Source of the DNA: Candidatus Hydrogenedentota bacterium
GTDB taxonomy: Bacteria; Hydrogenedentota; Hydrogenedentia; Hydrogenedentales; SLHB01
DNA: 32,000 nt
Direction: 5' to 3'
NCBI GenBank assembly: GCA_045863335.1
Contig: BTVY01000036.1
Span: 39,152 to 71,151, forward strand
Shown here: positions 2,260 through 17,119 of the stretch, piece by piece
Layout of the letters: each line of letters opens with the position of its first letter
How positions within the stretch are numbered: position 1 is the first letter of the stretch
Notes under the pieces: generated by a model
Databases searched by the model: none
What the model was told of the DNA's origin: nothing
What the model saw: the letters and a program-made list of their open reading frames with translations, nothing else
Program-made: the position numbers and the translations under genes

Positions 2260-2324
2260 CATTCCGTTGATTTAATTGGGATCTGCCGCTAGTATTGGGA
2301 AACTCAACTGGCTGCGGGGGCAGT

Positions 2325-3998
2325 ATGGAATACGCCGTTCTGGAATGCCGGCAAGAAGGACGAGAGCGCGTCTACCGTGCGACGCACGTAGATGCCGCCC
2401 ACGTCTTGCAGTGCGCGCGTGAGGGCCGCTTGAGCCTTTTTTACATCAGTGAGTCTCACGCTTCCGATCTTCAGAATACGGTACCGAAAATCCGGGACAT
2501 GGGCCGGAAACTTGCCGGAAAAGAATTGTCGCGGTATCTGGCCAAACTTGCGGAAAACGAAGTCGGAATTCTGAAAGGCGCGTACGACAGCACGCGGCAA
2601 CTGAAGCGGAGCGTGAGTGACGCGGTCAGGAAGTGCCACGAGCAACAACACGCGATCGTAGCCTTCATCACGCTGAAGCCGGCGCTGTTCGCTCAGGCGT
2701 GGAAAAAGGAAACCGCCAACGCCTCTCGCGACGACCGCATCGAAGCACGGGACTTGGAGTCTCCGGTTGAACGGACACTGCGCACCTTGGGCGAGATGGA
2801 CGTTCCGGAGAGTCTTGTCAAAGCGTATATTGGCAATTCGCCGTCAATCCGGCTGGTCCGCCAACTCATTCTCCGCGCAAGCGAACATGCCTACCCGGTG
2901 CTGATCCAGGGTGAATCGGGAACCGGCAAAGAGATAATCGCGCGCAGCATTCATGACTTGAGCCGTGACCACGGCCGCGGCCCGGAATTCCGGCCCATCA
3001 ATTGCAGCGCCATTTCCCCGTTCCTGTTGGAGTCAGAGTTGTTCGGGCATCTCAAAGACTCCTCGGATCGCGCGACCAAAGACCGCGACGGGCTATGGAA
3101 ATCCGCCAATAATGGCACGATCTTTCTCGATGAAATCGGGGACCTCAACCTGGACCAACAAGCAAAGATACTGCGGGTTCTAGACACGAACGCGGTGAAG
3201 CCGGTCGGCTCTGACGAGGAAGTTCCGGTGCGCGCCCGCGTGATCAGCGCGACCAATCGTGACCTCTATAGCATGATCCGCGACGGCCGTTTCCGGGAAG
3301 ACCTGTTCTTCCGTCTGAGCGTAATCCCCATTCAAACCCCGCCGTTGCGGGAACATCCCGAAGATATCCCGGTCATTGCACGTTGGCTGTGGACGGACAT
3401 CGCCGGGAAATCGGCGCCTTCGCTTTCGGGTGACATTCTGGCCTGCCTCAGCGAATACACGTGGCCAGGAAACGTGCGAGAACTAAAATCCATTCTGTCT
3501 TCGCTACGCGGATATTTCGGCGTCCGCGCCCGGACCCGGGATCAGTTTGAGACGGTCATGTTTCTCAAAGGGAAGCCTGCAGCCATTGCGACTCCCCCCA
3601 CCGCGCGACAATCGGCAACCCGCTCACGGGCCGAATCGTTCCAACATCTCCAACGGGTCGACGGCGTGCTGCGGGGCATCGAAGTCTTTCTGAAAGCGTT
3701 AAACGGCCGCCGCGCGATTCGGGATACGATGGACGCGCAAACCGCGCTCGGCGAGCGGCACCGCGAGCTGGCACATCTGTGTCAGAAACCTTTGCTGTTC
3801 GTGTCGCCCAAGACGTTTGACGCGGTTTACGGCGCCTGCGGGAAGATCGCGTATCTTTTGGATTCCCTGCAGACCGATTCTACGTCGTCGCCGCGACTTG
3901 CAACGCGGCAACTGGCCAAGGAAGTTCAAACTACGCGCGCCAAGGTGCAAAAACAGATTGACGGGCTCATGCCGAAACCGCGAAACCAGCGGAGCTAG
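2325..3998 (+). CDS. NtrC-family (bacterial enhancer-binding protein type) AAA+ ATPase/regulator with degenerate GAFTGA loop
   Basis: ATG at 2325 (GGGGG 5 nt upstream) inside track ORF 2295..3998. Motifs: VLIQGESGTGKE (Walker A), GTIFLDEIGDL (Walker B), GRFREDLFFRLSV, PPLREHPEDIP. The position of GAFTGA reads DSSDRA (3057-3074). A possible C-terminal HTH is ATRQLAKEVQTTRAKVQKQI. The N-terminal ~190 aa has no motif I recognise. Confidence 0.85.
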   Translation: MEYAVLECRQEGRERVYRATHVDAAHVLQCAREGRLSLFYISESHASDLQNTVPKIRDMGRKLAGKELSRYLAKLAENEVGILKGAYDSTRQLKRSVSDAVRKCHEQQHAIVAFITLKPALFAQAWKKETANASRDDRIEARDLESPVERTLRTLGEMDVPESLVKAYIGNSPSIRLVRQLILRASEHAYPVLIQGESGTGKEIIARSIHDLSRDHGRGPEFRPINCSAISPFLLESELFGHLKDSSDRATKDRDGLWKSANNGTIFLDEIGDLNLDQQAKILRVLDTNAVKPVGSDEEVPVRARVISATNRDLYSMIRDGRFREDLFFRLSVIPIQTPPLREHPEDIPVIARWLWTDIAGKSAPSLSGDILACLSEYTWPGNVRELKSILSSLRGYFGVRARTRDQFETVMFLKGKPAAIATPPTARQSATRSRAESFQHLQRVDGVLRGIEVFLKALNGRRAIRDTMDAQTALGERHRELAHLCQKPLLFVSPKTFDAVYGACGKIAYLLDSLQTDSTSSPRLATRQLAKEVQTTRAKVQKQIDGLMPKPRNQRS

Positions 3999-4028
3999 GA
4001 ACTGAGGGGATAGCTGGGGTCGGCGTTT

Positions 4029-4048
4029 GGAGTTCCGGCTTCAGCCGG
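4029..4048 (-). repeat. REP-like hairpin motif, copy 1 (inverted orientation)
   Basis: ggagttCCGGCttcaGCCGG is the reverse complement of CCGGCtgaaGCCGGaactcc. It has the same hairpin-plus-AACTCC architecture as copies 2 and 3. Confidence 0.5.
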
Positions 4049-4125: not shown

Positions 4126-4747
4126 ATGTCACAGCCGGAATACTGTTGGCGTCGGCTCACGACCAAACAGCGCGAGGAGCTGCTGGCCTGGCGCAAGGAA
4201 CGCGGGCATCCGTGGCACTCGCCGCCGCATCGTCCGAATTCCGGCCATGATCGCTTCCACGTCACCGCCGCGTGCTATGAGCATCGGGCTTTCATCGGCC
4301 ACAGCCCAGAGCGCATGGACACGTTTTCACGCAATTTGCTGGCCGTGTTCGCGTCGCACGCCAGCCAGACGTTCGCATGGTGTGTGCCTGCCAAATCATT
4401 ATCACGCGCTGGTCGAAGCGGCGGACGTACTCAGTCTGTTGCGTGCGTTGGGAAAACTGCACGGGCGCACGTCGTATACCTGGAACGGCGAAGAGAATTC
4501 GCGGGGGCGCAAAGTCTTCTTCCGCGCTGCCGAGCGCGCGATGCGTTCGGATCGGCACTATTGGGCCACGCTGAATTACGTTCATCACAACCCGGTACAT
4601 CACCACTACGTTGAGCGCTGGACAGACTGGCCGTGGAGTAGCGCGCGGGAGTATCTCGCGCAGACCGATCCTGAAGAAGCTAAGCGAACCTGGCGCGAAT
4701 ACCCGCTCGGCGATTACGGCAAGGGATGGGATGACGCGGAGATGTAG
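4126..4747 (+). pseudogene. RAYT/IS200-like Y1 (HUH) transposase, interrupted by a +1 frameshift
   Basis: Track ORFs 4126..4614 and 4247..4747 (different frames) together give one protein. Frame 1 reads ..WHSPPHRPNSGHDRFHVTAACYEHRAFIG..ASQTFAWCV. Frame 2 continues LPNHYHALVE (HUH), GRTSYTWNGEENSRGRKVF, DRHYWATLNYVHHNPV (Tyr region), WPWSS. The frame switch is needed near 4384-4390 (tgtgtg-c-ctgcca). A sequencing error cannot be excluded. Confidence 0.75.
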
Positions 4748-4771: not shown

Positions 4772-4791
4772 CCGCCTAAAGGCGGAACTCC
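4772..4791 (+). repeat. REP-like hairpin motif, copy 3
   Basis: CCGCCtaaaGGCGGaactcc lies 25 nt downstream of the transposase stop and has the same architecture as copy 2. Confidence 0.5.
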
Positions 4792-4890
4792 AAGCAATTC
4801 TTATTTGCACTACTTGACCCGCAGTCCATACCATTGCCTCGACGTGGGGTGGGTGTCGCGACTGCGGCTCGACAAGTGTGAGGGATCGAG

Positions 4891-6768
4891 ATGGCTGTGG
4901 AATCCGGGGACAGCAAGGCGACTGATTTATCCTCTTTCGCGCTTTTACCCAACGCAATTCCATATGAACTTCGCATCGGTGTAACCGGCCACCGGAAGCT
5001 TGCGGACCTAGATGCAGTGCGCCGGGCGGTGGATAGGTCGTTGGACCACATCCAACACGTCCTGGAGTCTGCGGCGGCGCAGCCCCACGGGGCGGAAGCG
5101 GGCGGACAGACGTGGAGCAAATGGTTTGACCAGGCTTTGCTGGCGGCGTTGCGGATGGTGTGGCGAGAGGTTCCGCCTTCGCCGGCAGTCGTGGATCCCT
5201 CCATGCGGACGCCGTTGCGGTGGTGCGCGGTGTCGGCGCTGGCGCAGGGGGCGGATGCCATCGTGGCGGAGGCGGTGCTGGCGCGGGCGGAATCGCGGTT
5301 GCGGGCGATCCTTCCGTTTGACGCCGACGAATACGGCACGGATTTCACGAGCCCGGAACATCTCGATACCTTTCATCGTTTGCTCGCGCGCGATCCCGGT
5401 GCGCGTGTGGTCGGTACGGTTGATGGTACGAAAGCGACCCGCAACCGCCTGTACCGCGAAGCGGGGGAGGCGGTGATTCACGGGTGCGACATCCTGATTG
5501 CGATCTGGGACGGCGAACCGGCGAAGGGCGAAGGCGGCACTGGGGACATCGTCCAGCATGCCTTGGAACATGGCCGGTTGACACTCTGGGTTAATGCGAA
5601 GAACCCAGACTCGCCGGTTAAACGGCTCGTGCCGCGCAGCGAGATCGAACGCGAGTCGGCAAAACCGATCCCGTGGACGACCGCCGAAGTCCCCGCGACA
5701 GCCAAAGCGTTGAGCCTTGGGTTCCACCAGATCTCCGCGTACAACCGGGACCTGGCGGTCGGCACGGACGCAGTCGCGGAGACGTTTGCGAAAAAACGCA
5801 CTACGATGCTGGAGGCGGCCCGGAAAAGCAACCTGCCCGAAACGGCGCTCGGGGAAGGGACCTGGACCGCGCTGGCCCAGTATTGTCGTGCCGATCAACT
5901 CGCCCTGCGCTACCAATCGCTTCACCTCCGTAGTGCGAAGGGGCTGTACCAACTCGCCGCGTTCGGCGTCACCGTCTCCGTAATTCAAGTCCTGTTCTTT
6001 CCCGCCTGGTACGGACTCGTCGCGCTGGAAGTCGCCGCCATGCTGGCCGTACTCATCATCCTGCGCATCTCGCGAAAGGAAAACTGGCACGAGAAGTGGC
6101 TGCACGACCGCCACTTTGCCGAGCGCTTGCGCGGCCGGATGTATCTCGACCTGCTTGGCGAAGACTCCGCGCCAGGCGACGCGCGGGCGGCTGCATCGCT
6201 GGCATTCTATAGCCGGCCCGCGGACTGGGTGACGCTGGCTTTTGCGAATCTGGAACCGCCGTCGACTCGGCCCGCTCAGAGCGGTGCGGAATGGATCGCA
6301 CTCCGCGATTTCATTTACGCAAACTGGGTCAACGCCCAGGCGAAGTACCACATCGACAATGCGGAACGGAAGGTGGGGCCGCCAAAACGCACCCACTGGA
6401 TCGGGGCGGGGTTATTCACCGCGACGCTGTTGGCAGCGCTGTTGCACGCCATCGGCGTGGGTCACGGCTCCCACGGAGACCACCACGGCATCTCCACCGT
6501 CACGGCGCTCCTATTTGCGACGACCGTGCTGCTTCCCCTCTGGGGCGCAACCTTGCACGCCATCGACACCCTGCACGATTGGCACCGCATCGCCAGCCGT
6601 TCCGAACGCATGGGCCGCCAGCTCCAGAACGTCGCTGAGGGTCTCAAGAATGCCGCGACTCCAGAAGAAATTCGGCGCCAGGTCCGCACGGCCTACGAGA
6701 TCATGGCCACCGAAAACCAGGAATGGGCCGCGTCGCTGGCCTTCCGTGGACCGACTTTGCCTGCGTAG
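4891..6768 (+). CDS. SLOG-like Rossmannoid domain fused to two SLATT-like 2-TM modules (4 TM helices)
   Basis: ATG with GAGGGA RBS. The N-domain has YpsA/LOG-type signatures: RIGVTGHR, SALAQGADAIVAEAVL, RAILPF, DILIAIWDGEPAKGEGGTGDIV. TM pair 1 (LYQLAAFGVTVSVIQVLFF / WYGLVALEVAAMLAVLIIL) is followed by ENWHEKWLHDRHFAERLRGRMYL. TM pair 2 (WIGAGLFTATLLAALLHAIGV / TALLFATTVLLPLWGATLHAI) is followed by LHDWHRIASRSERMGRQL. The domain names are assigned from remembered family patterns, not from a search. Confidence 0.6.
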   Translation: MAVESGDSKATDLSSFALLPNAIPYELRIGVTGHRKLADLDAVRRAVDRSLDHIQHVLESAAAQPHGAEAGGQTWSKWFDQALLAALRMVWREVPPSPAVVDPSMRTPLRWCAVSALAQGADAIVAEAVLARAESRLRAILPFDADEYGTDFTSPEHLDTFHRLLARDPGARVVGTVDGTKATRNRLYREAGEAVIHGCDILIAIWDGEPAKGEGGTGDIVQHALEHGRLTLWVNAKNPDSPVKRLVPRSEIERESAKPIPWTTAEVPATAKALSLGFHQISAYNRDLAVGTDAVAETFAKKRTTMLEAARKSNLPETALGEGTWTALAQYCRADQLALRYQSLHLRSAKGLYQLAAFGVTVSVIQVLFFPAWYGLVALEVAAMLAVLIILRISRKENWHEKWLHDRHFAERLRGRMYLDLLGEDSAPGDARAAASLAFYSRPADWVTLAFANLEPPSTRPAQSGAEWIALRDFIYANWVNAQAKYHIDNAERKVGPPKRTHWIGAGLFTATLLAALLHAIGVGHGSHGDHHGISTVTALLFATTVLLPLWGATLHAIDTLHDWHRIASRSERMGRQLQNVAEGLKNAATPEEIRRQVRTAYEIMATENQEWAASLAFRGPTLPA

Positions 6769-6842
6769 CCCGCGTATTCTGGGCGACTATCGCGCCGCAG
6801 CGAAGCGTCGAGCGGAATGCCCGGCGAAATTCGATTTCGAGA

Positions 6843-6851
6843 TGCTATAAT
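6843..6851 (+). promoter_or_regulatory. Candidate extended -10 promoter element (TGcTATAAT) for the ribokinase-like/AAA+/RyR gene
   Basis: tgcTATAAT lies 48 nt upstream of the ATG at 6899. The -35 is poor (cggcga). Motif only. Confidence 0.35.
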
Positions 6852-6898
6852 GGCCGACCGGGGTCACGAACAGCGTTTTGGGACGGTGGGGATTCATC

Positions 6899-9421
6899 AT
6901 GGGCGTGAAGAAGATCGCAGTGCTTGGTGATGTCTGCGCGGACGTTCTGGAGGTATCAACGCCCTCCCGCAAACGGACGCTGAGCGAAACGGTATCGAAC
7001 TGGCGTCTCTATCCGGAAACATACCTCCACATGCTCCCCGGTGGCGCGTTGTTGCTGGCGGAGTTCATTCAAGCAGCGTGTGACGGTGAGGTTGTCGGCT
7101 TGGACGGTGTCGACCTCGACAAGCCTCAGCACGACCGTATCCTCCAATCCCACCTGAAACTCGGCACCTTCCCAAAGACTCTCGGCAGCAAAGAAACCAC
7201 GTTGCGGCTTCGACGGTACGCGGGATTCTCCGGCTCCGAAAATGCGCCACTGCTACCGTGTATCGCAAGCGCTAAGGACGTCTCGCTCCTCGTGCTGGAC
7301 GATCCGGGCAATGGATTCCGGTACGAGCCGTCTGCATGGCAAGCTGCCTTACGCACTTTGCCGAAAAGATCCCCGATTATCCTCAACATGTGCCGTCCAC
7401 TCATGAAGGGGCAATTGTGGGACTACCTTGCCAAGTCGTACCGCGACAATCTGCTGCTCGTCTTGAGCGCGGACGATCTACGGACGGTAGGCGTGCAGAT
7501 CAGCAAGCGCCTATCCTGGGAGCGTACGTCGAAAGATCTCGTTTGGCAGCTGGAGAACAACGTATTGCTTCGTCCGCTTCGTCGATGCGGTCATGTGATT
7601 GTGCGATTTGGCATTGACGCCGCCATATACACGCGAAACACAGGAAAGACGTCGCTGTCCCAACTGTGTTTTGATCCGTCCTCCGTGGAAGACGGCTTTG
7701 CGGAAACAATGCCCGGCACCATGCCGGGATTGACCTATGCCTTGGTCGCATCGCTCGCCGCTGCGATAGACCGGACCGGCAATTTCGAGGAACTGACAAG
7801 CGGAATTCACGCCGGAATTCGTAGTGCGCGCGCTTTGCTCCGTACCGGATTCAAAGTCGAGAACGCGGCCCCCCGTTATCCCATTCCGGAGATCTTTTCA
7901 CCAACCGACTCGGACAAAACCCGTCTCGGTTGTGTCGAAATCAGTCTTACCAAGTCCGGAAAGGATGCCGATCCGGGGTTCTGGCGGATACTGGACCAAC
8001 TCAGCGAAAAACGATTGGAGGAAATGGCCTTCCGAATCGTTCGCCAAGGCGTGGAGAGGTCGCTCGGCGAGGTACCGTCCGGCCGGTTCCGCCATCTTCA
8101 TACGGTCGACCGGGCCGAGATTGAGCACTTTCGCGCGATTCAGAATCTGATGCGGGAGTATGTAAGCCGCGAAAAAACCAAGCGCCCTCTTTGCATTGCG
8201 GTATTTGGGCCTCCCGGTGCTGGGAAGTCTTTTGGGGTCGCGGAAGTCGCAGAAACGGTGGCACCGGGCAAGGTCCGAATGATCGAGTTCAATGTCTCTC
8301 AATTCGATTCCCCGGACGATCTCATCGACGCGCTGCACAAAGTCCGAGATTCCGTTCTCGAAGGGCAAATTCCGTTAGTGTTCTTCGACGAGTTCGATTC
8401 CGGCTACGGCGGAAAACTGGGGTGGCTGAAGTACTTCCTCGCGCCCATGCAAGACGGTAAGTTCAGGGACGGCGAATCGATTCACCCCATTGGCAAATCC
8501 ATCTTCGTGTTCGCCGGAGGCACTCGCGACTCGTTCGAGGCATTCTCCGCGGATGGGGTCCCAGGAACGGCCGAAAGTGCGGGGTGGTTCCGCGATGCTA
8601 AAGGTACCGACTTCGTGAGCCGCCTGCGCGGTTTCGTGGACGTGCTCGGCCCAAATCCGCGCGACGAGAAGGATAAGGTGTTTATCGTTCGACGCGCCAT
8701 GTTGCTTCGATCCCTCTTGGAACGCCTCACACCCCAGTTGGTCGACGACGAAGATTATGCGCGTGTTGATCCGGGCGTGCTGCGCGCACTCATCCACGTG
8801 CCAGATTACCGCCACGGCATACGCTCCATGGAAGCGATACTGGATATGAGTTCCTTGTCGAACGCCCTGTCCTTCGAGCAGGCGGCGCTTCCTCCAGCAA
8901 ACCAACTACGACTCCATGTGGACCCGGAGATCTTCGAACGATTGGTACTTCAGGACGCTTCGTTTGGCGCCGTCCGGGAGCAGCTCGCACAGGCAATTCA
9001 TGAACGCTTTGTCCGAGATCAGGCCGGAAACCGGCCACAGAGTGACGAGGCCATGCAACCGTGGGATGAATTGCTGGAGACCTACAAGGAAGCCAACCGG
9101 CGCCAAGCGGACCACATCCCGGAGAAGCTGAAAGCCATTTCCTGCAGTTTCACTCCTTTCACTCAACAACCAGTTTCCCCCATTAACTTCTCGAAAAAAG
9201 AGATCGAGATAATGGCGCGAATGGAACACGACCGGTGGGTACGAGAACGCCTGGAGGAAGGGTATACCCCAGGTCCCAGAAATCCGATCAAGAAAACCAG
9301 TCCATATTTGGGATCGTGGGAGACACTGGACGACAAGGTGAAGGAATTTGATCGCAATACAGTTCGGGCCATTCCGGATCTGATGACCAGCGTAGGTTTC
9401 CGGATCTATCGGTTGAGCTGA
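6899..9421 (+). CDS. Three-domain protein: ribokinase/PfkB-like N-domain, classical AAA+ ATPase, C-terminal RyR domain
   Basis: ATG at 6899 (GGTGGGGA RBS) inside track ORF 6878..9421. The N-domain has KIAVLGDVCADV, GGALLLAEFI, LLLVLSADDLRTVG and GHVIVRFGIDAAIY in PfkB-like order, but the GAGD anion-hole position reads PGTMPGLTYAL. AAA+ motifs: IAVFGPPGAGKSFG, PLVFFDEFD, IFVFAGGT, DFVSRLRGFVDV. C-terminus: NRRQADHIPEKLKA .. ARMEHDRWVRERLEEGYTPG..TSPYLGSWETLDDKVKEFDRNTVRAIPDL, a bacterial RyR-domain pattern. Confidence 0.7.
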   Translation: MGVKKIAVLGDVCADVLEVSTPSRKRTLSETVSNWRLYPETYLHMLPGGALLLAEFIQAACDGEVVGLDGVDLDKPQHDRILQSHLKLGTFPKTLGSKETTLRLRRYAGFSGSENAPLLPCIASAKDVSLLVLDDPGNGFRYEPSAWQAALRTLPKRSPIILNMCRPLMKGQLWDYLAKSYRDNLLLVLSADDLRTVGVQISKRLSWERTSKDLVWQLENNVLLRPLRRCGHVIVRFGIDAAIYTRNTGKTSLSQLCFDPSSVEDGFAETMPGTMPGLTYALVASLAAAIDRTGNFEELTSGIHAGIRSARALLRTGFKVENAAPRYPIPEIFSPTDSDKTRLGCVEISLTKSGKDADPGFWRILDQLSEKRLEEMAFRIVRQGVERSLGEVPSGRFRHLHTVDRAEIEHFRAIQNLMREYVSREKTKRPLCIAVFGPPGAGKSFGVAEVAETVAPGKVRMIEFNVSQFDSPDDLIDALHKVRDSVLEGQIPLVFFDEFDSGYGGKLGWLKYFLAPMQDGKFRDGESIHPIGKSIFVFAGGTRDSFEAFSADGVPGTAESAGWFRDAKGTDFVSRLRGFVDVLGPNPRDEKDKVFIVRRAMLLRSLLERLTPQLVDDEDYARVDPGVLRALIHVPDYRHGIRSMEAILDMSSLSNALSFEQAALPPANQLRLHVDPEIFERLVLQDASFGAVREQLAQAIHERFVRDQAGNRPQSDEAMQPWDELLETYKEANRRQADHIPEKLKAISCSFTPFTQQPVSPINFSKKEIEIMARMEHDRWVRERLEEGYTPGPRNPIKKTSPYLGSWETLDDKVKEFDRNTVRAIPDLMTSVGFRIYRLS

Positions 9422-9428
9422 TCTGCAA

Positions 9429-11150
9429 TCAGGATTGCTGCATTCCCGCCACTACCAACCGCGGTATGTTACGGACCGCGCTCCGATCGTACTCCTTGAT
9501 GGCGTCCGGCAGTTCGTCATAGGGAACGAGATACGGTGTTTGCCGCCGGCCCACGTCTTTTTCTCCCAACGTCCAACCCGCCAGAAACCGCTCCGCGTTC
9601 CAGCGTGCGTGCTCCATACGCGCAAGTGTTTCCACCCGATCCTCGGGAATCTCCGGCGTCTCCTCCAGTTCCGCGATTGTTCGCACGCGGTACCCCAATG
9701 CGCGAAGCTTCACGGGGATGTGGTCGGCCTGTTGCCGATTGGAGTCCTTGAATTCCGGCGACAACCGATCCCAATCTTCTGTTGATGGACTCTTCTGGCC
9801 GCCGCGCTCCCGCTGTTTGGCCACGTAGTCCTCGTGGATCAGGCGGGCCAGCTTGTCCAGCCCGTCACCCTCCACCATTTCCCAAGAACACGACGAACGC
9901 ATCGATCCGAAGCAGTACATGTTCTGCCCATTCGTGGACGGGGAGAACAAAGCCGCGAGCCCGGAATCCTGGTTTATCCGCACGAACACCGGTACGCTGT
10001 CTCGTTCGACATGACGGCGCACGCTCAGTGCGTACTGCGCGTTTCGCGAATCGTTGTCAAAGCAGATGGCAACACTGCAGATTTCGGCGGGGTCCTGCGC
10101 GATCTCGGCGATACGGCGAAGCGTAAGTGAATCGTCGCATTCGGCGTGGACAAACTCGATATCGCAGACATTGTCCAGCTGGGGGTACCTGACATATAGC
10201 CCCCGCCTTCTCGCCTCCGCCGAATGGTCGACAACCGTGACAGCCAGCCGTTTCCCGTTGGCAACGTGGCCGATCTTTGCTGCTTGAATGAGTAGACTCT
10301 CACCCATCTGCCCCAAACCAAATAAAACCAATCGGATTCGCCGGGGGTCATCCGGGCCAATGTATTCGCGATCCAGGGGATGATCGCGCAATAGAAGGCG
10401 TGAAGCGTTTTCGTAGGAGTTGAAGACCGACACGTTGAACTTCTGTCCGGTCTCGCGGAGCATCGGGTGATCTTTGAACAAAGCCGCAAACGTGAAGTCC
10501 ATCACCTGGACTAGACAACAAAGACGGTGACGGTTGGCGTGCGTTTGGCTCTCATCGAGTATTTCCTTCGTGCGAAGCGCGATCTCGATATTGACCCCGT
10601 CGTTTCCGCAAACCGCTATGGCCGTGCGCGCCCGTTCCACATGCGCCCGGCGAAGGATCGCCTGATGCGTTGCGTCTCCCGTCACCAAGAGAATCCCGGA
10701 GTCCCGCGCGACCGTAAGGCCATCGGCATGAGGATTGGATTCGATGATCGCCACTTTGTGCCCCCGGCTTCTGCATTCCTCCGCCAACTGCAAGCCCCTG
10801 CGCCCGAGTCCGCAGATCACCACATGATTCCGGGCGAGCGCGAGTTGAAGTCCACGCCAGCGATTCCGGATGAATTCAACGAAGATCCGCAGAACCGCCG
10901 ACGCCGCAGTCAACGGCGCAAGAATCCGCGCCACTTCCAGTTGCCACGGAACCGGACCTTCCACGCCTCCGGATTCCATGGTAAAGAGCTGCCAGTCCAG
11001 GTAAACGACATCAAGCACGGTGAGGTTGTATCCCTTCAATTCACCGTGCCGGACAAATCCAACATATCCGAGTACCAACGAGGCTGCTGCAGCGACCGCG
11101 ATCACAATCCATCCACGGCTGACCCTCCACAGGCTTCGAAGTAGATTCAT
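9429..11150 (-). CDS. Membrane protein: 2 TM helices, two TrkA-N/RCK-type Rossmann domains, C-terminal RyR domain
   Basis: Probable start is ATG at 11150 (MNLLRSLWRVSRGWIVIAVAAAASLVLGYVGF; GGTGGAG RBS). The 96 upstream codons of track ORF 9429..11438 are Arg-rich nonsense. The second hydrophobic segment is LEVARILAPLTAASAVLRIFV. Rossmann motifs: HVVICGLGRRGLQLAEE..KVAIIE and IRLVLFGLGQMGESL. C-terminus: NRQQADHIPVKLRA .. ARMEHARWNAERFLAGWTLG..QTPYLVPYDELPDAIKEYDRSAVRNIPRL. Confidence 0.75.
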   Translation of the reverse strand: MNLLRSLWRVSRGWIVIAVAAAASLVLGYVGFVRHGELKGYNLTVLDVVYLDWQLFTMESGGVEGPVPWQLEVARILAPLTAASAVLRIFVEFIRNRWRGLQLALARNHVVICGLGRRGLQLAEECRSRGHKVAIIESNPHADGLTVARDSGILLVTGDATHQAILRRAHVERARTAIAVCGNDGVNIEIALRTKEILDESQTHANRHRLCCLVQVMDFTFAALFKDHPMLRETGQKFNVSVFNSYENASRLLLRDHPLDREYIGPDDPRRIRLVLFGLGQMGESLLIQAAKIGHVANGKRLAVTVVDHSAEARRRGLYVRYPQLDNVCDIEFVHAECDDSLTLRRIAEIAQDPAEICSVAICFDNDSRNAQYALSVRRHVERDSVPVFVRINQDSGLAALFSPSTNGQNMYCFGSMRSSCSWEMVEGDGLDKLARLIHEDYVAKQRERGGQKSPSTEDWDRLSPEFKDSNRQQADHIPVKLRALGYRVRTIAELEETPEIPEDRVETLARMEHARWNAERFLAGWTLGEKDVGRRQTPYLVPYDELPDAIKEYDRSAVRNIPRLVVAGMQQS

Positions 11151-11363
11151 GACACAACTCCACCGTGATGCCCTGAGCATCATTTCCCCGATTTCCCCTG
11201 ATGCGCCAATCTCGCGTGTGGCCACGGGACTATACCATAGACCAGCATTCGCTACAGTCCCGTCTCTTCGACGGTTCCTGGCCCGGCCAATTCCAAACTT
11301 TCGACGATTCGGCAGCGAATCAGATGCCGTATTGATTCTGCTGCGTCTTTGCCGTACCTCGCG

Positions 11364-11369: not shown

Positions 11370-11455
11370 GCCTCTGGGCACGAACGAAGCTGGGGCTAGG
11401 GCCGCTCCCCGTACCGGGGTGCGCGGGTCAGACGTCAATGCTTGGGGGATCCGTC

Positions 11456-12460
11456 ATGCGGAAACTCTCGGAATACGTACTTGGCAGGGAACTACAGTTC
11501 GGTACCGTTTCATCCAGGACACGGCTGCAGCGCTTTCGATCTGTTGCCGGCCGATTCTTGCTCGCTCTCGCAGCCACGAGCATACTGAGTTGCGCACCTG
11601 CCAGCGATGGTTACTCGGTGAGTCAACTCCAAACCAGCGCCGGAACCGAATACCGCATGGAGTGGACGGAAGACGGCGAAACGCGCCACTTCATGACCCT
11701 GATCGAATCCGGTGGCGCCTTGGCGCTACGCCCCCACCCCGGGGTCGACCCGAATGGCTGGGGATCGAGTTGGTACCCGCAGCCCTTCCTGGCGGGGGCG
11801 GTGCTCAGTCACAGTGGCGTGGACTCGGCCATCGCAACAGCGGACGGAATTGAAGTTGCTCTATCCGGAGACGTATCAAGCGACGCCAACGGCACCTACG
11901 GCGCATGGTCGCTCGACATGGTCTTTACCTACGACGCGGTCGCAAAGAAGGTAGCAGGGGACGGCGTACTTTCCATCGCGCTGGATGGACCGATCGGTGC
12001 CGGTACCGGCGATTTGAATCTTTACAGAATCGCGTCGAACTACCTGGACGACGTCCCCTTGCTCAGCGGCGGCATGGGCGATACCGGGGATATGGACTAC
12101 GCGGCGGTCGTCGCCAACGGCTTCAACTTCGACTGGTACCCGCCAATCCAACCGGCCCACTTCCCCTCGGACATGACCGACACCCTTTCCATTGACGTCA
12201 AAGGCCAATACAACGAGGTCGATTCCGCCACGCAGGGCCACGCGCCAATTGCTGCCGCCTATAAGCCCTCATTGAAAGTCGTGCTGAGCACGGACCAGTC
12301 GATCCTCACCTTCGGCGGGTTCTACGACACAAGCGTCGCACAAGACTTCTGGGAAGACAACGTCGGCATCACACCGCTCCTGCGCGTCGGCACAGGTGGA
12401 ACCAATTTCGATTTCGACGTGGACTTCGAATCGATCGCCCTGGCAGGCGACGGGGCGTGA
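11456..12460 (+). CDS. Putative secreted lipoprotein, function unknown
   Basis: ATG at 11456 (GGGGGA RBS) is preferred over 11438. Hydrophobic stretch FLLALAATSILSC with a lipobox-like L-S-C. The mature part is Gly/Asp/Ser-rich and beta-rich looking. No family recognised. Confidence 0.55.
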   Translation: MRKLSEYVLGRELQFGTVSSRTRLQRFRSVAGRFLLALAATSILSCAPASDGYSVSQLQTSAGTEYRMEWTEDGETRHFMTLIESGGALALRPHPGVDPNGWGSSWYPQPFLAGAVLSHSGVDSAIATADGIEVALSGDVSSDANGTYGAWSLDMVFTYDAVAKKVAGDGVLSIALDGPIGAGTGDLNLYRIASNYLDDVPLLSGGMGDTGDMDYAAVVANGFNFDWYPPIQPAHFPSDMTDTLSIDVKGQYNEVDSATQGHAPIAAAYKPSLKVVLSTDQSILTFGGFYDTSVAQDFWEDNVGITPLLRVGTGGTNFDFDVDFESIALAGDGA

Positions 12461-12598
12461 TTAGCTATGATCGAAATACAGGCTGCAGACGAGTGGGTCT
12501 TGGCCTTCGAGGGATCTGTTGCTGTGCTCAATCGAGCGATTCGGTGGGGATGACGTGATCGACCAGCTTACTTGCCCGCAAGTGGACTCCAGGAAAGG

Positions 12599-15500
12599 AT
12601 GACCGAGGTGAAACCCCGCGTTGCCATGATCAGCAGTACGATGCTTGACCTCCCAAATCATCGCAAGAAAGTTAAGGACGCATGCCTAAGTCGCAATATA
12701 CTTCCTATGATGATGGAGAACCTTCCGTCCAGTGATGTCGAAGCGGTTCAGGTGTCTCAAGAGATGGTTGAGCAAGCCAACGTATACATCGGTGTATTCG
12801 CGCACCGTTACGGTCACGTCCCAGATGGATACGACGTTTCAATTACCGAGTTGGAGTTTGATCGCGCACTCGAGCGGAAGATTCCTATCCTGGTTTTTAT
12901 TATGCACGAGAAATACCGGATCCTCCCCGGTACGGTTGAATCGGGTGCAAAGTCCAAACTCGATTCACTGAAGAAACGCGCCTGTGATGGCCGAGTCTGC
13001 AGAACATTCAAGTCGCCCGAGAGCCTAAAAGCAGAGGTCATCAACGCTCTCGCGGACTTGGAACGGAGGGAGACGACGGCAGGACTGCCAATAGCATCCG
13101 AGTGTTATCCCTTCGAGTTGCTATCGCCCGATTGCCGACTGGTACGAGCGCCTGACTCATCGCCAGACAATCCTTTTCCTTCTTGGCAAGAGTACGTCGA
13201 GCAAAAGGTCCCCAAACTGAAAGCAGATGAAATCATACAGGAGCGTCTGAGGTTGCACGGTTGGGCGTCTGTCCTGGATGCCGCCTCTGTTGGAAAGACT
13301 ACGTTGTCGCTTCGGTTAGCGAGCGCTCCCGAGCGGCGGGATAACCCATCCTACTATTTCGACCTTGCCTCCATCGCGGCAATGGACGAGGGCTCTTATC
13401 CGTTGGCTGCATTACGACGGCTTGCCCAACCGGGAACATTCCTAATTCTTGACAATATCCATCATCAGCCAGAACTTGCGCGCGAGCTCTGGACCCTATG
13501 GCGTGCACTAGCTAAGGGAAGCCAATTGCTATTGTTGGCTACGGACATTTTTCGTCCGGTTTTGACCGCGCCCGTCCAGGACCTTGCTTTCTTCAAGAGT
13601 CATTCGGAAAACCCGTCCATAGCACTCCGTCCAGAACCTGAAGACCTATGGCACATTGTCCAGTATCTGCACGAACGGTTGGCCGGAAAAAGTCATGGCG
13701 CATTGCCCAATCCACCCGCGCATGTTCTTACTCGATGGCATCGCGACTTCAGGTGTGCTCTCGGCGCTTTTTGCATCTGGGCCATTGCCGGAATGAGCGA
13801 ATTCAGGCAAGGGTGCTGGAACGTGTCTTTGGAAGCTACCGCTGAATGGGTGCGGAGAAAGTGGCTCAGTGGACTACCCAAATTAGAACGGGAGAACCTC
13901 GAATGCCTCGCGGTATTCGGCGCACAGGAATTTGAGATACAGGTGCCAAGTAACGCGCTGCCTCATCCCCGCAAGTTGGAAAAGCTATTCGCGCGCGATT
14001 TGGTATCGCGCACCCAACGGGGCGGACTCAACCCGTACAACAGCTACGCCCTGCGTGAACCAAGCTGGGGCCAATTGATTATTGCCGCACTCGACGCGCC
14101 GCCTGATGAAGAAGCTGTAATCTTTGACGCGGCGTTACGCGACCCGATCACTGCGTCGATTTTAACTTCGCGGTTGCGGAGCTTGGGCCGTATAGAGTAC
14201 ACAGCGCGTTTGTGGGAACATTTAGCAAAGCAGCCAATTCTCTTCGCGACTCGGGCGACAAAGGTCAAGCTCGAACTCTGGATCCACTTGCTTCGTGCGG
14301 CAAGGGATCAGGATAAAGCGGAACTTGCCGAGCGGCTATGGAACGCATGGGAATCCGAGCCAGAAGCGCTGCTTAAACGAGCTTGGGAGGCGCAACTACA
14401 TTCCTTAGCAGCCTTCGTCGATTCGGCGGAGAAACACGGGCGCGAAACACTCGCCACATTGCTATGGGAGAAGCTGGAGGAGCGTCGTGACGAGTTGTGT
14501 GAACGAGCCATGGAAACCTCACTTGAACAATCAGCGATCTTCCTGGCGATGGCCCGGAAACACGGACACGCAACACTCGCCGTGGCGTTGTGGGACGCGG
14601 TGGAGAAACAGCCCAACGAACTGGCGAAACGAGCCGTGGAAACCTCCCTTGCGTCTACGGCTCGCTTCCTGGCGACGGCCATGGCGCATGAGCGCTTCAC
14701 ACTGGTCGCAACATTGTGGGACAAGCTGGAGGAGTTGGAGAAGGACGACGATGAATTGTCCAAACGAGTCATGGAATCCCCCCTCGACGCTACGGCTCGC
14801 TTCCTGGCGACGGCCATGGCGCATGAGCGCTTCACACTGGTCGCAACATTGTGGGACAAGCTGGAGGAGTTGGAGAAGGACGACGATGAATTGTCCAAAC
14901 GAGTCATGGAATCCCCCCTCGACGCTGCGGCTCACTTCCTGGCGATGGTCGCGAAAGGACGCGCAACACTGGCTACAACGTTGTGGGACAAGTTGGAGAA
15001 ACAGCCCGACGCGTTGGCGCAAAGAGCCTTGGAAACTTCGCTGGAAAAGTTGGCTGGTTTCCTGGCGACGGCCAAAGATCAAGAACGCGCAACCTTGGTC
15101 GCAACGTTGTGGAACAAACTGGAGAAACATGCCGATGCGTTGGCTGATCGAGCTTTGGAAATTTCTCTCGAACATCTGGCCTATTTCCTGGCGACGGCTA
15201 GGAACCACGAGCGCGCAACACTGGTCGAAACGTTGTGGGACAAGCTGGAGAAACAGCCCGACGCGTTGGCGCAAAGAGCCTTGGAAACTTCGCTGGAAAA
15301 GTTGGCTGGTTTCCTGGCGACGGCCAAAGATCAAGAACGCGCAACCTTGGTCGAAACGTTGTGCCGGAGTCTGGAGGAGCAACCAGCAAAACTTGCAAGC
15401 AGAGCAAGAGAAATGAATACCGCCAGTCTCGCGGGATTCCTTATCAATGCGCCGGAGACTCTTGCAAAGTGCGCTATCACAGGATTCACACAAGCCGATT

Positions 15501-16321
15501 GGCAGATTCACGTTGATAGCGGTCGCCCGCTTGTCGGCGCCGCGGCCTTGGCGCAACGTTTTGGCGAGTTAGGTCGCGCTGATCTCCAGGATACAATCGC
15601 GGAGAGCCTTCTGCGGCGCGCCAACTGGCGCGACTTTGGGTGGGTCGATGCGGGGATACCGAGGGTGGCATGGTTACTGGCTAACATTCCGAGCACAGCG
15701 ACTGAAGCTGTACCCCATTTCATCGACGCCATCTGCACAAGGAATTGGTTGAGACGTCAATACAAATATGGAGCGACTGGGCCGATTGCTGGCGGCCTCA
15801 GGGAACTGGCGATGCATCAGCCGCCTGAGATTTGTCAGAGGTTTCATGATTGGAGTTTGGGCCTTCGTTTGAAGCAGGAACTCGAAGAGTTTGCCAATAC
15901 CACTCCGGAGAAGCGGCACCTTACCGTGCAACTTCTGGGTTCCAGCCAACTCGCCGGCTTCCGAATACCACGGGAGTGGCTGCACGGTTTACCCATGGAC
16001 ACTATGGGGCAGCTACCGCTCGCTGCTCTGCCGCATCGTCCCGACGCAATGAAAGTCGAAGACTGGCAATTCAATCTCTGGCTCGGGTTGCGTGTCGTTG
16101 CGTCTTTTGGTTACGCATCCCTTCTAGTCTCCCCTGACGTCGTCGCTGAAACGCTCCGGCTTTGGCAGCTGAATTTGGCAGAGACTTCCGCCACACCGAC
16201 GGCAACTGCCAATAGGGTGAACGCGAGCATGGTTGCGTGGCTCGAAGAATGCGTTGCAACAAGAGATGGAGAACTTGCTCCAAACCAACAGCGGCTGTGG
16301 GAGCTATCAGGCTTCCCGTAG
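12599..16321 (+). CDS. STAND-type P-loop NTPase with N-terminal DUF4062 domain and C-terminal alpha-helical repeat array
   Basis: ATG at 12599 inside track ORF 12572 (TTG)..16321. The N-terminus is a very good DUF4062 pattern: RVAMISSTMLDLPNHRKKVKDACL..PMMMENLP..VYIGVFAHRYGHVP..SITELEFDRALERKIPILVFI. P-loop: LDAASVGKTTLSLRLA. Walker B-like: FLILDNIHH. About 10 repeats of 42-45 aa follow (..FLATA...ER.TLV.TLWDKLE.....L..RA.E.SL..). Confidence 0.8.
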   Translation: MTEVKPRVAMISSTMLDLPNHRKKVKDACLSRNILPMMMENLPSSDVEAVQVSQEMVEQANVYIGVFAHRYGHVPDGYDVSITELEFDRALERKIPILVFIMHEKYRILPGTVESGAKSKLDSLKKRACDGRVCRTFKSPESLKAEVINALADLERRETTAGLPIASECYPFELLSPDCRLVRAPDSSPDNPFPSWQEYVEQKVPKLKADEIIQERLRLHGWASVLDAASVGKTTLSLRLASAPERRDNPSYYFDLASIAAMDEGSYPLAALRRLAQPGTFLILDNIHHQPELARELWTLWRALAKGSQLLLLATDIFRPVLTAPVQDLAFFKSHSENPSIALRPEPEDLWHIVQYLHERLAGKSHGALPNPPAHVLTRWHRDFRCALGAFCIWAIAGMSEFRQGCWNVSLEATAEWVRRKWLSGLPKLERENLECLAVFGAQEFEIQVPSNALPHPRKLEKLFARDLVSRTQRGGLNPYNSYALREPSWGQLIIAALDAPPDEEAVIFDAALRDPITASILTSRLRSLGRIEYTARLWEHLAKQPILFATRATKVKLELWIHLLRAARDQDKAELAERLWNAWESEPEALLKRAWEAQLHSLAAFVDSAEKHGRETLATLLWEKLEERRDELCERAMETSLEQSAIFLAMARKHGHATLAVALWDAVEKQPNELAKRAVETSLASTARFLATAMAHERFTLVATLWDKLEELEKDDDELSKRVMESPLDATARFLATAMAHERFTLVATLWDKLEELEKDDDELSKRVMESPLDAAAHFLAMVAKGRATLATTLWDKLEKQPDALAQRALETSLEKLAGFLATAKDQERATLVATLWNKLEKHADALADRALEISLEHLAYFLATARNHERATLVETLWDKLEKQPDALAQRALETSLEKLAGFLATAKDQERATLVETLCRSLEEQPAKLASRAREMNTASLAGFLINAPETLAKCAITGFTQADWQIHVDSGRPLVGAAALAQRFGELGRADLQDTIAESLLRRANWRDFGWVDAGIPRVAWLLANIPSTATEAVPHFIDAICTRNWLRRQYKYGATGPIAGGLRELAMHQPPEICQRFHDWSLGLRLKQELEEFANTTPEKRHLTVQLLGSSQLAGFRIPREWLHGLPMDTMGQLPLAALPHRPDAMKVEDWQFNLWLGLRVVASFGYASLLVSPDVVAETLRLWQLNLAETSATPTATANRVNASMVAWLEECVATRDGELAPNQQRLWELSGFP
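14200..15440 (+). repeat. Intragenic tandem array of ~126-135 bp (42-45 codon) units, with near-identical and identical copies
   Basis: 14655-14791 is identical to 14790-14926 (135-bp period, perfect). 14977-15111 matches 15229-15363 at a 252-nt offset with 2 mismatches (14993/15245 and 15102/15354). The other units are diverged at DNA level but share the LW.KLE / FLA.A pattern. Confidence 0.95.
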
Positions 16322-16402: not shown

Positions 16403-17119
16403 ATGGCCCGTAGTTCCACGAGACATACGATTCTGCCTATGCTCTCACATCGGTTCGTGCTGCGGAGGCATACGGAGTATGTCCTGAGTCTGGCGATGTC
16501 GGGGGATGGGCGGCGTTTGGTGAGCGGGGCGATGGACGAGACGGTGCGAGTTTGGGACGCCGGCACCGGCCGGAAGGTGGTGGTGCTTCGTAGTCAGTTG
16601 GTGTTATGCGTTGCGATTTCGCCGGATGGGCGGCGCATCTTCATCGGCAGTAAGGCGGGAACGATCCGCGTGCGGGACGCGGAAACGGGCGAACGGCTCG
16701 CGACGATGCGGGGGCATCGCACTGGTATCTACAACATGTTCTTCCAGAACGGAGACCGGGAGCTGGTGACGTGGGACGTAAATGACGAATCGCGGGTTTG
16801 GGATGCCGCGACCGGCGAATGCCTGGCGTCGGGGCAGCTTCCCGGCACGATGTGGGTCGGCCCGAATGTGCCAGAGGATTGCCCCTATCAATTTACCGAT
16901 CGCGGACAACCCACTGTCATTAGTGACGCCGCCACGGGCGAACCCATAGCCGTGGTCGACCAATCCTTCTCGAGTATTGCCGCCTCGAATACCGGCCGCT
17001 GGGCGGGATCGAACGGTTCGGAGATCTACGTCTTCGACATGGCTGACATCGGCGCGTGCGGCGAGGCTGCGCCGCGAACGTCTGTTCTCCGAGTTCGGCA
17101 TTGGTTACCGAGGCGATGA
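16403..17119 (+). CDS. Short stand-alone WD40-repeat protein (about 4-5 blades)
   Basis: ATG with GAGAGGGAA RBS, 81 nt after the STAND gene. Repeats: HTEYVLSLAMSGDGRRLVSGAMDETVRVWDAGTG, VLCVAISPDGRRIFIGSKAGTIRVRDAETG, GHRTGIYNMFFQ..DRELVTWDVNDESRVWDAATG. Confidence 0.8.
   Translation: MARSSTRHTILPMLSHRFVLRRHTEYVLSLAMSGDGRRLVSGAMDETVRVWDAGTGRKVVVLRSQLVLCVAISPDGRRIFIGSKAGTIRVRDAETGERLATMRGHRTGIYNMFFQNGDRELVTWDVNDESRVWDAATGECLASGQLPGTMWVGPNVPEDCPYQFTDRGQPTVISDAATGEPIAVVDQSFSSIAASNTGRWAGSNGSEIYVFDMADIGACGEAAPRTSVLRVRHWLPRR

Follow-up and report, generated by a model that had tools for sequence, protein, structure and literature searches.

The stretch of DNA analysed here (the window) comprises 32,000 nt of a metagenome-assembled genome (MAG) of a Candidatus Hydrogenedentota bacterium (GCA_045863335.1, contig BTVY01000036.1, positions 39,152–71,151, forward strand). 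Three large adjacent genes within it, designated a, b and c, encode proteins in which SLOG, SLATT-like, PfkB-like, AAA+, TrkA_N and RyR domains are combined. These genes are proposed, with a probability of roughly 60%, to form the receptor and effector half of a Thoeris-like conflict system that signals through nucleotides derived from nicotinamide adenine dinucleotide (NAD+), the other half being encoded just downstream. A signal-sensing membrane-effector system of an abortive-infection or stress-signalling type had already been suggested in an earlier note on this DNA; that idea is supported here in an amended form, with a larger system, with ligands suggested for the RyR domains and with a resemblance to Thoeris. 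The three open reading frames (ORFs) are present as the note had described them, with c convergent with b, and its domain calls (SLOG, PfkB-like, AAA+, TrkA_N and RyR, and at the level of the family SLATT) are backed by profile and fold searches. All coordinates are window positions, and genes are lettered a–f in window order.

4891–6768, + strand: gene a, 625 residues; SLOG (YpsA-like) domain and two SLATT-like modules of two transmembrane helices (2TM) each; predicted signal-gated membrane effector
6899–9421, + strand: gene b, 840 residues; PfkB-fold domain, AAA+ ATPase and tandem RyR module; cytoplasmic
9429–11183, − strand: gene c, 584 residues from ATG 11183 (573 residues from ATG 11150); 2TM part, TrkA_N/RCK domain, second Rossmann-like domain and tandem RyR module
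12572–16321, + strand: gene e, 1249 residues; DUF4062 (TIR-like NAD+-cleaving enzyme, NADase), putative STAND P-loop NTPase and helical repeats
16403–17119, + strand: gene f, small WD40-repeat protein directly after e (Pfam WD40, 8.4e-18)

The linkage of these genes was surveyed from two sides. For the view from b, 185,579 species genomes were scanned, which gave at least 444 relatives of b in bacteria and archaea; the best 80 of these loci were analysed with 10-kb flanks, and counts are given over 79 genome loci. The view from a covers 80 metagenome loci, which brings the survey to about 160 loci spread over many phyla of bacteria and archaea. Loci were typed with crude ORF calls, all-against-all clustering and in-house hidden Markov models (HMMs) for the a, b, c and DUF4062 families; L- and P-numbers below are labels of loci and representative proteins in this survey.

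Genes a, b and c recur side by side in every pairing across the ~160 loci, in unrelated bacterial and archaeal phyla, a linkage far stronger than chance would give; the co-occurrence that the earlier note had proposed to test is thus found well beyond the window. An a-type SLOG gene is present at 17 of the 79 b loci, as a full SLOG-SLATT gene in nine and as a stand-alone SLOG gene of ~195 residues in eight, where it starts 3–22 nt after b; where b is followed by a, the gap falls in the same range. Eleven of these loci have a c-type 2TM-TrkA gene, 18 a DUF4062 gene and 12 a TIR gene. Of the 44 non-Bacillota loci, 26 have a TIR or DUF4062 gene in the 10-kb flanks of b, compared with none of the ~37 Bacillota loci, which serve as an internal control. 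Seen from a, b is adjacent in ~14 of the 80 metagenome loci, c follows a at a gap of 4 nt in ~14, and TIR or DUF4062 genes are present in 31. The partners of a that were typed with Pfam comprise TIR_2 with a PD40 propeller, TIR_2 or ThsB_TIR, SIR2_2 plus TIR_2 with nSTAND1-TPR, TIR_2 with a PQQ propeller, and DUF4062 with AAA_16; relatives of a adjoin canonical TIR genes, often several of them.

All three genes are found together at L113, L120 and L148, and b, SLOG and c at L058 and L074. In Gimesia algae, b is followed by a and then by a convergent DUF4062-STAND-TPR gene; the order is TIR, b, a at L084 and b, a, c, DUF4062 at L113. In a second Hydrogenedentes genome, c is convergent with a homologue of a. 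One c homologue is placed among three flanking DUF4062-NPHP3-TPR genes, and another (the P0206 context) is found with RelA_SpoT-RyR, NUDIX and DUF4062-NACHT genes.

Covalent fusions are found among the 149 best AAA+-RyR representatives of b: three proteins have the layout PfkB-AAA-RyR-SLOG (P0414, P0448 and P0450), two TIR_2-AAA-RyR (P0397 and P0406), one TIR_2-PfkB-AAA-RyR (P0349) and one PfkB-AAA-RyR-TIR_2 (P0366). Further examples are a TIR_2-AAA-RyR protein at L001 and a PfkB-AAA-RyR-SLOG protein at L124. For the four TIR fusions, Pfam confirmed both TIR_2 and RyR; in the SLOG fusions that were scanned (P0414 and P0450), Pfam identified RyR and AAA alone, and the SLOG domain was assigned with the in-house HMM of the a N-terminal domain. 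These fusion proteins are taken to mean that the b chassis has a functional link with both TIR NADases and SLOG domains. Chance juxtaposition, or mere co-location in defence islands, was ruled out by the operonic spacing and the covalent fusions.

The three genes are also not considered to come from phages: 2.9 million viral contigs gave one partial b, no c, and only stand-alone SLOG pieces. The phage contigs carry stand-alone SLOG or RyR pieces, never a full a, b or c, which fits decoy copies of host receptor domains. The SLOG pieces, seen on 21 IMG/VR viral contigs (L171–L191), are related to residues ~113–235 of a and may act for phages as sponges or decoys of the same signals. The genes are seldom found on plasmids (3 of 72,556 records). 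On plasmid pA of Methylobacterium sp. FF17 (L165), a b homologue is located near a 2082-residue SIR2-family protein, a further neighbour of the NADase type, with an insertion sequence (IS) element between them.

Direct Pfam, NCBIfam and PADLOC scans gave nothing above threshold for a or for the N-terminal domain of b, and family-level scans and structure prediction were therefore needed for both. The features of a are as follows.

4960–5628, + strand: SLOG domain of a (residues ~24–246), with motifs GVTGHR, S-LA-GAD and GGT
5881–6150, + strand: SLATT-like module 1 of a, hydrophobic stretch 351–395 followed by the conserved helix WHEKWLHDR-AE-LR
6328–6735, + strand: SLATT-like module 2 of a, TM helices 503–524 and 533–558 followed by a C-terminal amphipathic helix

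The AlphaFold (AF2) model of residues 1–260 of a (predicted local distance difference test, pLDDT, 89.5) has B. subtilis YpsA (2nx2) as its top Foldseek match in the PDB (E 1.8e-6, probability 1.0, TM-score 0.68 on the target). The next matches are the SLOG domain of ThsA with 3′-cyclic ADP-ribose (3′cADPR; 7uxs, probability 0.99), LOG proteins and a Moco carrier protein. The fold match to YpsA and ThsA backs the SLOG reading that had been made from the sequence. No curated SLOG model matched a above threshold, YAcAr being the best (E 0.068; 13.4 bits, cutoff 28.2) and matching one of 30 family members with an E of 0.005; the a-family profile gave no matches against PDB sequences. The family is coherent, with at least ~60 homologues of 550–640 residues retrieved by homologue search. 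Aligning 30 of them shows the three SLOG motifs and the helix WHEKWLHDR-AE-LR to vary little or not at all; the strictly invariant positions include T32, G33, H34, R35, A118, G120, D122, G216 and T217 in the SLOG domain, and W403, R407, E411 and R414 in the helix of module 1.

The hydropathy profile of a contains stretches at 351–395 (of two-helix length), 503–524 and 533–558, which are read as four TM helices. In direct scans the SLATT-type matches of the window protein are all sub-threshold: SLATT_3 at residues 331–413 (E 7e-4 when the C-terminal half of the protein is scanned; 17–20 bits, cutoff 26.3), DUF4231 (0.019), SLATT_1 (0.039) and NCBIfam SLATT_1 at 529–615 (5.6e-4). Among the 30 aligned homologues, matches at E≤0.01 were obtained for DUF4231 in 15, SLATT_3 in 13 and SLATT_1 in nine, the best at 2.3e-8, and the UniRef label of the Gimesia homologue is SLATT-domain protein. 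From alignments and the structure model, gene a is assigned, in agreement with the earlier note, as a YpsA-type SLOG domain with two SLATT-like 2TM modules, the SLATT call holding at the level of the family.

Three further observations concern the a region. At L112 (6315–9542) a homologue of a carries a 515-residue N-terminal extension, in which Pfam found no match. The G+C content of gene a is 63–65% (window 5001–7000), compared with 55–59% in b, c and e. An antisense ORF of 462 residues (5008–6396) inside the region is probably a by-product of the high G+C.

Gene b, which is 100% identical to a protein of a Ca. Hydrogenedentota MAG, is divided into three parts.

6899–7933, + strand: PfkB/ribokinase-fold domain of b (residues 1–345)
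8081–8968, + strand: AAA+ ATPase of b, Walker A GPPGAGKS at 437–444 and Walker B FFDEFD at 495–500
8975–9412, + strand: tandem RyR (Repeat12-type) module of b (Pfam RyR, 4.9e-11)

Pfam identified AAA (25.7 bits, cutoff 21.2) and RyR (43.2 bits, cutoff 27.4) in b, and both Walker motifs are invariant in 20 homologues, including K443, D497 and E498. The first 385 residues have no sequence-level match in Pfam and NCBIfam scans or in a profile search against PDB sequences. For the AF2 model of these residues (pLDDT 86.9), the top 50 Foldseek matches all belong to the PfkB/ribokinase family (E 1.8e-9 to 1.9e-7, probability 1.0) and include HldA (4e8y, 1.8e-9), pseudouridine kinase, ribokinase and ketohexokinase. 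The composition read earlier for b, PfkB-like, AAA+ and RyR, is thus borne out, the last two by Pfam above cutoff and the first by the fold of the model.

In the family alignment, a GG motif (G48, G49) of the PfkB-like domain is invariant. By manual comparison, 'DPxxxEDGF' is superposable on the PfkB signature 'DTxxxGDxF' (E264 invariant, D265 present in most homologues), and the NxxE motif is absent, with 'ADDL' in its place. The assumption that the catalytic Asp is lost was dropped, since 'DPxxxEDGF' fits the signature. An hhalign comparison with E. coli ribokinase gave no alignment, and the PfkB motifs were read by manual comparison. The AAA+-RyR part of b retrieves 2127 clusters (50% identity) at E≤1e-30. 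Family members are present in cultured Clostridium, Gimesia and other strains, and b is directly testable because the family is this large and is represented in such strains.

The protein encoded by c has the following parts.

10869–11126, − strand: membrane part of c, with TM1, the conserved segment 'Y..QLF.LESG' and TM2 'W.L.VAR.LAP'
10536–10823, − strand: TrkA_N/RCK Rossmann domain of c, with an intact GxGxxG and an acidic residue after β2 (Pfam, 5e-22)
9447–9863, − strand: tandem RyR module of c (Pfam RyR, 1e-13)

The Pfam scores of c are 78.9 bits for TrkA_N and 51.8 bits for RyR (cutoff 27.4), and hydropathy places the two hydrophobic helices at residues 9–34 and 73–94. The dinucleotide-binding motif is conserved throughout the family, with G114 and G116 in 27 of 27 members, and G119 and E/D137 in 26 each. 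The second Rossmann-like domain retains a GxGxxG-like 'GLGQMGES' and matches TrkA-N weakly (E 0.078); of the two TrkA-N domains previously proposed, the first is well founded (78.9 bits) but the second is weak. The gene and its strand were read correctly at 9429–11150, but the 5′ end probably was not: ATG 11183 is a likelier start than ATG 11150, because a purine-rich stretch (GGGGAA) lies upstream of it. At least ~225 homologues share the architecture of c, and in 30 of them the segment between the TM helices, 'Y..QLF.LESG', has a pore-loop-like topology. Ordinary K+-transport synteny, which the earlier note had named as an alternative setting for the TrkA-RyR gene, was ruled out, as none of seven c contexts contains a TrkH, KtrB or Ktr gene.

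The RyR modules of b and c are tandem arrays of two RyR half-repeats and are pseudo-dimeric. That the two proteins carry the same module, as noticed at first reading, is visible even in the DNA, where it appears as an inverted repeat.

Arms 9062–9129 and 9706–9773: inverted DNA repeat, 68 nt, 71% complementary; homologous RyR-coding segments of the convergent genes b and c

Family profiles match PDB structures of the RyR Repeat12 domain at 1e-26 (b) and 2.3e-31 (c). The function of bacterial RyR domains had been given as unknown in the earlier note, a statement now out of date: according to two 2026 preprints, phage RyR-domain proteins bind 2′cADPR, 3′cADPR and cADPR with nanomolar affinity, and one cleaves them (PMC13232231; 10.64898/2026.06.04.730250). 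The ligand is contacted by two His residues, a Trp and an Asp, all of them conserved throughout PF02026 (PMC13232231; 10.64898/2026.06.04.730250). The pocket of RyDEP, one of the phage RyR proteins, holds linear ADP-ribose (ADPR), and RyR Repeat12 binds adenine nucleotides (PMC13232231; 10.64898/2026.06.04.730250). With residue equivalences to RyDEP and RyR Tad inferred from the published motif descriptions, the putative ligand-contact positions of b are H777 (20/20), an aromatic residue W/F/Y780 (20/20) and D818 (19/20), all three carried by repeat 2 of the module; those of c are H514 (25/27), an aromatic residue (27/27; W517 in 26/27) and D555 (26/27).

The phage RyR proteins were described in 2026 as counter-defence proteins only (PMC13232231; 10.64898/2026.06.04.730250), and a literature search found no description of host RyR-domain proteins in systems of this type. 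The RyR proteins b and c thus appear to be undescribed, and a would extend a predicted effector class by a new member. Taken together, the system would represent a variant of TIR/NADase signalling with an undescribed host-side receptor domain (RyR) and two undescribed effector architectures.

Downstream of c, gene e begins with DUF4062 (Pfam 7.6e-18; 64.9 bits, cutoff 24.7) at residues 19–99 (12626–12868). Its 'SITELEF' (E93/E95) aligns with a conserved T-E-x-E of 16 relatives, and, judged by position, E93/E95 may be equivalent to the catalytic E97 of KpSwz. The STAND part has a Walker A motif, 'SVGKTT', and a weak AAA_14 match; the corresponding partners in related loci match NACHT, AAA_16 and HTH_NWD1 in Pfam, and the PADLOC Avs model did not match e. 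The putative sensor part and gene d, which precedes e, are located as follows.

14441–15381, + strand: tandem repeats in e, seven 126-nt units (a 42-residue helical repeat), 60–92% identical in DNA; putative sensor part
11438–12460, + strand: gene d, 340 residues; lipoprotein-like N-terminus

The 42-residue repeats of e give spurious matches to 'addiction module' and HEAT models. Gene f has a tblastn match to the WD40 partner of L007, and a WD40 cluster (C1) is present in 14 b loci; WD40 partners recur beside DUF4062-STAND genes in related loci, where DUF4062-NACHT-HTH_NWD1 genes are found with large WD40 proteins. Gene e, together with f, is probably the infection sensor and NAD+-cleaving signal source of the same system. 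Both genes are assigned to it because TIR and DUF4062 genes recur at a and b loci and TIR domains are fused to b-type proteins; the DUF4062-STAND gene, taken in the earlier note as the boundary of the block, is thus better seen with f as a recurring partner in a larger system. Gene d has no Pfam or NCBIfam match and one homologue among the 80 b loci, ~10 kb from b (L057, a Verrucomicrobiota contig), and its membership in the system is doubtful.

With the domain content, the linkage and the fusions observed as above, a ligand, a direction of signalling and an outcome can be proposed from the biochemistry published for relatives of the DUF4062, RyR and SLOG domains. Protein e, perhaps with f, would recognise the invader and oligomerise through its NTPase, which would switch on the TIR-like NADase head; the head would then convert NAD+ to ADPR or to an ADPR isomer or derivative. 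The three proteins a, b and c would each perceive this ADPR-type nucleotide. In a, it would be bound by the YpsA-type SLOG domain, as 3′cADPR is by ThsA, and the SLATT modules would open or assemble. In c, the tandem RyR module would bind the nucleotide and the RCK domain would probably read NAD(H), the two jointly gating the 2TM pore-like module. In b, binding to the RyR module would drive the AAA+ ring, and the PfkB-fold head may bind or modify a ribose-containing ligand, as an effector, an amplifier or a signal-processing step. The infected cell would finally lose its membrane potential and either stop growing or die.

Several observations weigh against this signalling system. Since both b and c also occur solitary, they are not strictly dependent on partners in cis. 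The b homologues of the ~37 Bacillota loci (L010–L046: Clostridium, Desulfosporosinus, Pelotomaculum and others) are full length and ~40% identical, and they stand alone: no conserved neighbour was found, the adjacent genes differ from species to species, and the 10 kb on either side of b contain no TIR, DUF4062, SLOG or c-type gene. Gene c likewise stands alone in Archangium and on one metagenome contig. The phosphate-contacting His of the RyR pocket (RyDEP H100) is Ser in 15 of 20 b proteins, and Ser or Thr in 20 and His in seven of 27 c proteins. The TVGYG K+ selectivity filter was not found in the membrane part of c among 30 homologues, and a search with the family profile against the PDB detected no channel similarity there, the RCK and RyR parts alone giving matches. 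The PfkB-like head of b, in which NxxE is absent, may or may not be catalytically competent. A PADLOC (2023) scan returned no match for a, b or c, and the window flanks consist of housekeeping genes with no recognisable defence island. Two candidates of a Thoeris effector class with the architecture of a gave no protection when tested in E. coli (10.64898/2025.12.03.692087). Finally, the characterised DUF4062 enzymes, Swarozyc and TEP1, act by NAD+ depletion and release plain ADPR, with no dedicated second messenger known (10.64898/2026.05.01.722283).

A rival reading is an arrangement in two layers, in which e is an executioner that depletes NAD+, as Swarozyc does, and a, b and c respond independently to bulk ADPR or NAD+ loss from any cause (another NADase defence, a phage enzyme or stress), adding arrest at the level of the membrane. 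Known DUF4062 enzymes do yield plain ADPR and deplete NAD+, the RyDEP pocket holds linear ADPR, and Repeat12 binds adenine nucleotides; b and c are also found where no TIR or DUF4062 gene is nearby, one b homologue neighbours the 2082-residue SIR2 protein of the Methylobacterium plasmid, and the intact dinucleotide motif in the RCK domain of c could serve to read NAD(H). Independent responders of this kind are nevertheless judged unlikely, given that the covalent TIR–b fusions and the tight operonic spacing point to a dedicated partnership, and that the SLOG effectors of Thoeris answer specific cADPR isomers rather than bulk ADPR. It is also conceivable, though quite improbable, that killing is left to a and c, and that b, possibly with the stand-alone SLOG protein, is a regulator that sets the threshold and prevents autoimmunity, either by clearing or buffering stray signal (as a RyDEP-type glycosidase or a sponge) or by converting the TIR product with its PfkB-like head. 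In b the positions of the RyDEP catalytic dyad (His and Asp) are conserved, ribose-type hydroxyls are the usual target of the PfkB fold, and b, the most widespread component, is found fused to SLOG and, at its N- or C-terminal end, to TIR. NUDIX genes recur in these loci as well, and NUDIX domains are found in ADPR-binding and ADPR-cleaving proteins such as NUDT9 and TRPM2. However, the phage RyR proteins that have these residues mostly bind without catalysis, and a solitary regulator in ~37 Bacillota genomes would be unexpected.

The genes may also have no part in conflict and instead form a physiological NAD(H)/ADPR circuit for ion flux and metabolism in stress or dormancy, with c as a redox- or nucleotide-gated cation channel, b as a metabolic kinase-like ATPase and a as a nucleotide-gated membrane protein. 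TrkA_N/RCK domains ordinarily regulate K+ transport, YpsA acts in cell-division control, and the lone copies of b and c among housekeeping genes, the housekeeping flanks of the window and the lack of a PADLOC match would all be in keeping with such a role. This is considered very improbable in view of the repeated, strong linkage to TIR, DUF4062-STAND, SIR2-TIR, nSTAND-TPR, propeller sensors and SLATT, which are hallmarks of conflict systems; moreover, the distribution across phyla is patchy and includes archaea, no TrkH or Ktr partner is present in any context, and phages carry stand-alone copies of both sensor domains. The Thoeris-like signalling system remains the preferred explanation of the locus.

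A more far-reaching proposal is possible but doubtful. Proteins b and c would be the first host-side Repeat12 receptors. Protein c would be a pore gated by an ADPR-type product through RyR and by NAD(H) through RCK, and a forerunner of the cation channels opened by cADPR or ADPR (RyR and TRPM2). Protein b would be an AAA+ machine whose PfkB head converts the TIR product to a new messenger, for example by phosphorylation of a ribose hydroxyl, or amplifies NAD+ cleavage. The eukaryotic ADPR-calcium toolkit would have descended from systems of this kind, a descent proposed because DUF4062-NACHT-WD40, TIR, SLOG (including TRPM-type LSDAT), RyR and Nudix co-occur in these loci. Among related loci, a protein with RelA_SpoT, LSDAT_prok and RyR domains, and small NUDIX proteins, were seen at L061 (3465–6014), L012 (512–967) and in the P0206 context, so that all three modules linked to ADPR in the animal TRPM2 and RyR channels (SLOG, RyR and Nudix) come together in one prokaryotic neighbourhood.

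The loci point to what the phage RyR proteins may imitate, namely host receptors with the same domain that are wired to a membrane module and to an AAA+ machine. If correct, the proposed system would bring to TIR/NADase immunity a sensor domain and two effector types that are new to it, and would for the first time connect the newly recognised DUF4062 NADases, a group that includes human TEP1, NWD1 and NPHP3, with downstream receptors. It would also offer a small bacterial model for the unsettled question of whether and how ADPR and cADPR act on ryanodine receptors via Repeat12.

Upstream of a, a sigma-54 activator is encoded at 2295–3998, and its AAA domain matches the PADLOC RtcR/PspF 'CARF_AAA_HTH' models (7e-77); the match lies mostly over the sigma-54 ATPase part, and a CARF sensor is not established. 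The earlier note had placed the block between a RAYT/REP element and a STAND NTPase. The repetitive (REP-like) component is present, as 22-nt inverted repeats at 4027–4048 and 4772–4793 (86% complementary) that flank an ORF of 162 residues (4126–4614); the RAYT assignment is not upheld, as this ORF has no Pfam or NCBIfam match.

Among known systems, nucleotide-centric conflict systems built on SLOG and SLATT were reportedly defined by Burroughs et al. in 2015. Gene a resembles them in joining a predicted SLOG sensor to a predicted SLATT-like membrane effector. In that framework, as cited in PMC9503650 and PMC6459960, SLOG is a predicted sensor and SLATT a predicted membrane effector regulated by ADPR derivatives. 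In those later papers of the same group that the comparison covered, no mention was found of RyR, PfkB-AAA+ or TrkA partners.

Protein c resembles RCK-gated 2TM channels (MthK, GsuK and Kch) and TrkA in having two TM helices, a short linker and a TrkA_N/RCK domain with GxGxxG, and it resembles GsuK in particular in having a second Rossmann-like domain after the RCK domain. It differs from RCK channels and Trk systems in that the TVGYG filter, similarity in the membrane part and a TrkH or KtrB neighbour are all missing, and in that a RyR module is appended. With the phage RyR proteins, b and c share the Pfam family PF02026 and the conserved His, aromatic and Asp contact positions. In contrast to these small dimeric sponges and glycosidases that block immunity, b and c are large host proteins in which a tandem module is fused to AAA+/PfkB or to membrane/RCK domains, and in most of them Ser or Thr takes the place of the phosphate-contacting His.

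DUF4062 is a TIR-like NADase that converts NAD+ to ADPR and nicotinamide, acts in phage defence as Swarozyc and is active in human TEP1 (10.64898/2026.05.01.722283). Gene e is similar in that it opens with DUF4062 and has a Glu-containing 'TELE' near the position of the catalytic E97. The DUF4062-NACHT-HTH_NWD1 and WD40 partners of related loci have the layout of human NWD1 and TEP1, which extends the likeness to the NWD1, NWD2, TEP1 and NPHP3 group. Swarozyc is a single protein whose auxiliary domain binds the phage portal and which kills by NAD+ depletion, whereas here DUF4062 is fused to a STAND NTPase, and the SLOG and RyR membrane proteins linked to it are encoded separately, an arrangement suggestive of signalling.

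The closest parallel is Thoeris, in which an NAD+-cleaving TIR-type enzyme is likewise encoded beside effectors with a nucleotide-sensing domain. In type I Thoeris, the SLOG domain of the SIR2-SLOG protein ThsA binds 3′cADPR; type VII Thoeris, with TIR and SLATT (ThsH), uses cADPR, and type X, with TIR and an ion channel, is a validated defence whose signal is unidentified (10.64898/2025.12.03.692087). The window differs in that DUF4062 fused to a STAND NTPase replaces TIR, Pfam finding no TIR domain there; in that three receptor proteins are encoded rather than one; in that two of these use RyR, a domain absent, as are PF02026 and TrkA, from the text and tables of 10.64898/2025.12.03.692087; and in that the AAA+/PfkB protein has no Thoeris counterpart. 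The statement in the earlier note that the block could not be matched to any named defence system no longer holds in this light. The SLOG domain of a is ThsA/YpsA-like, its predicted output is through SLATT-type TM helices, and its architecture is that of the candidate Thoeris effector class 'SLOG and 4TM' in the tables of 10.64898/2025.12.03.692087.

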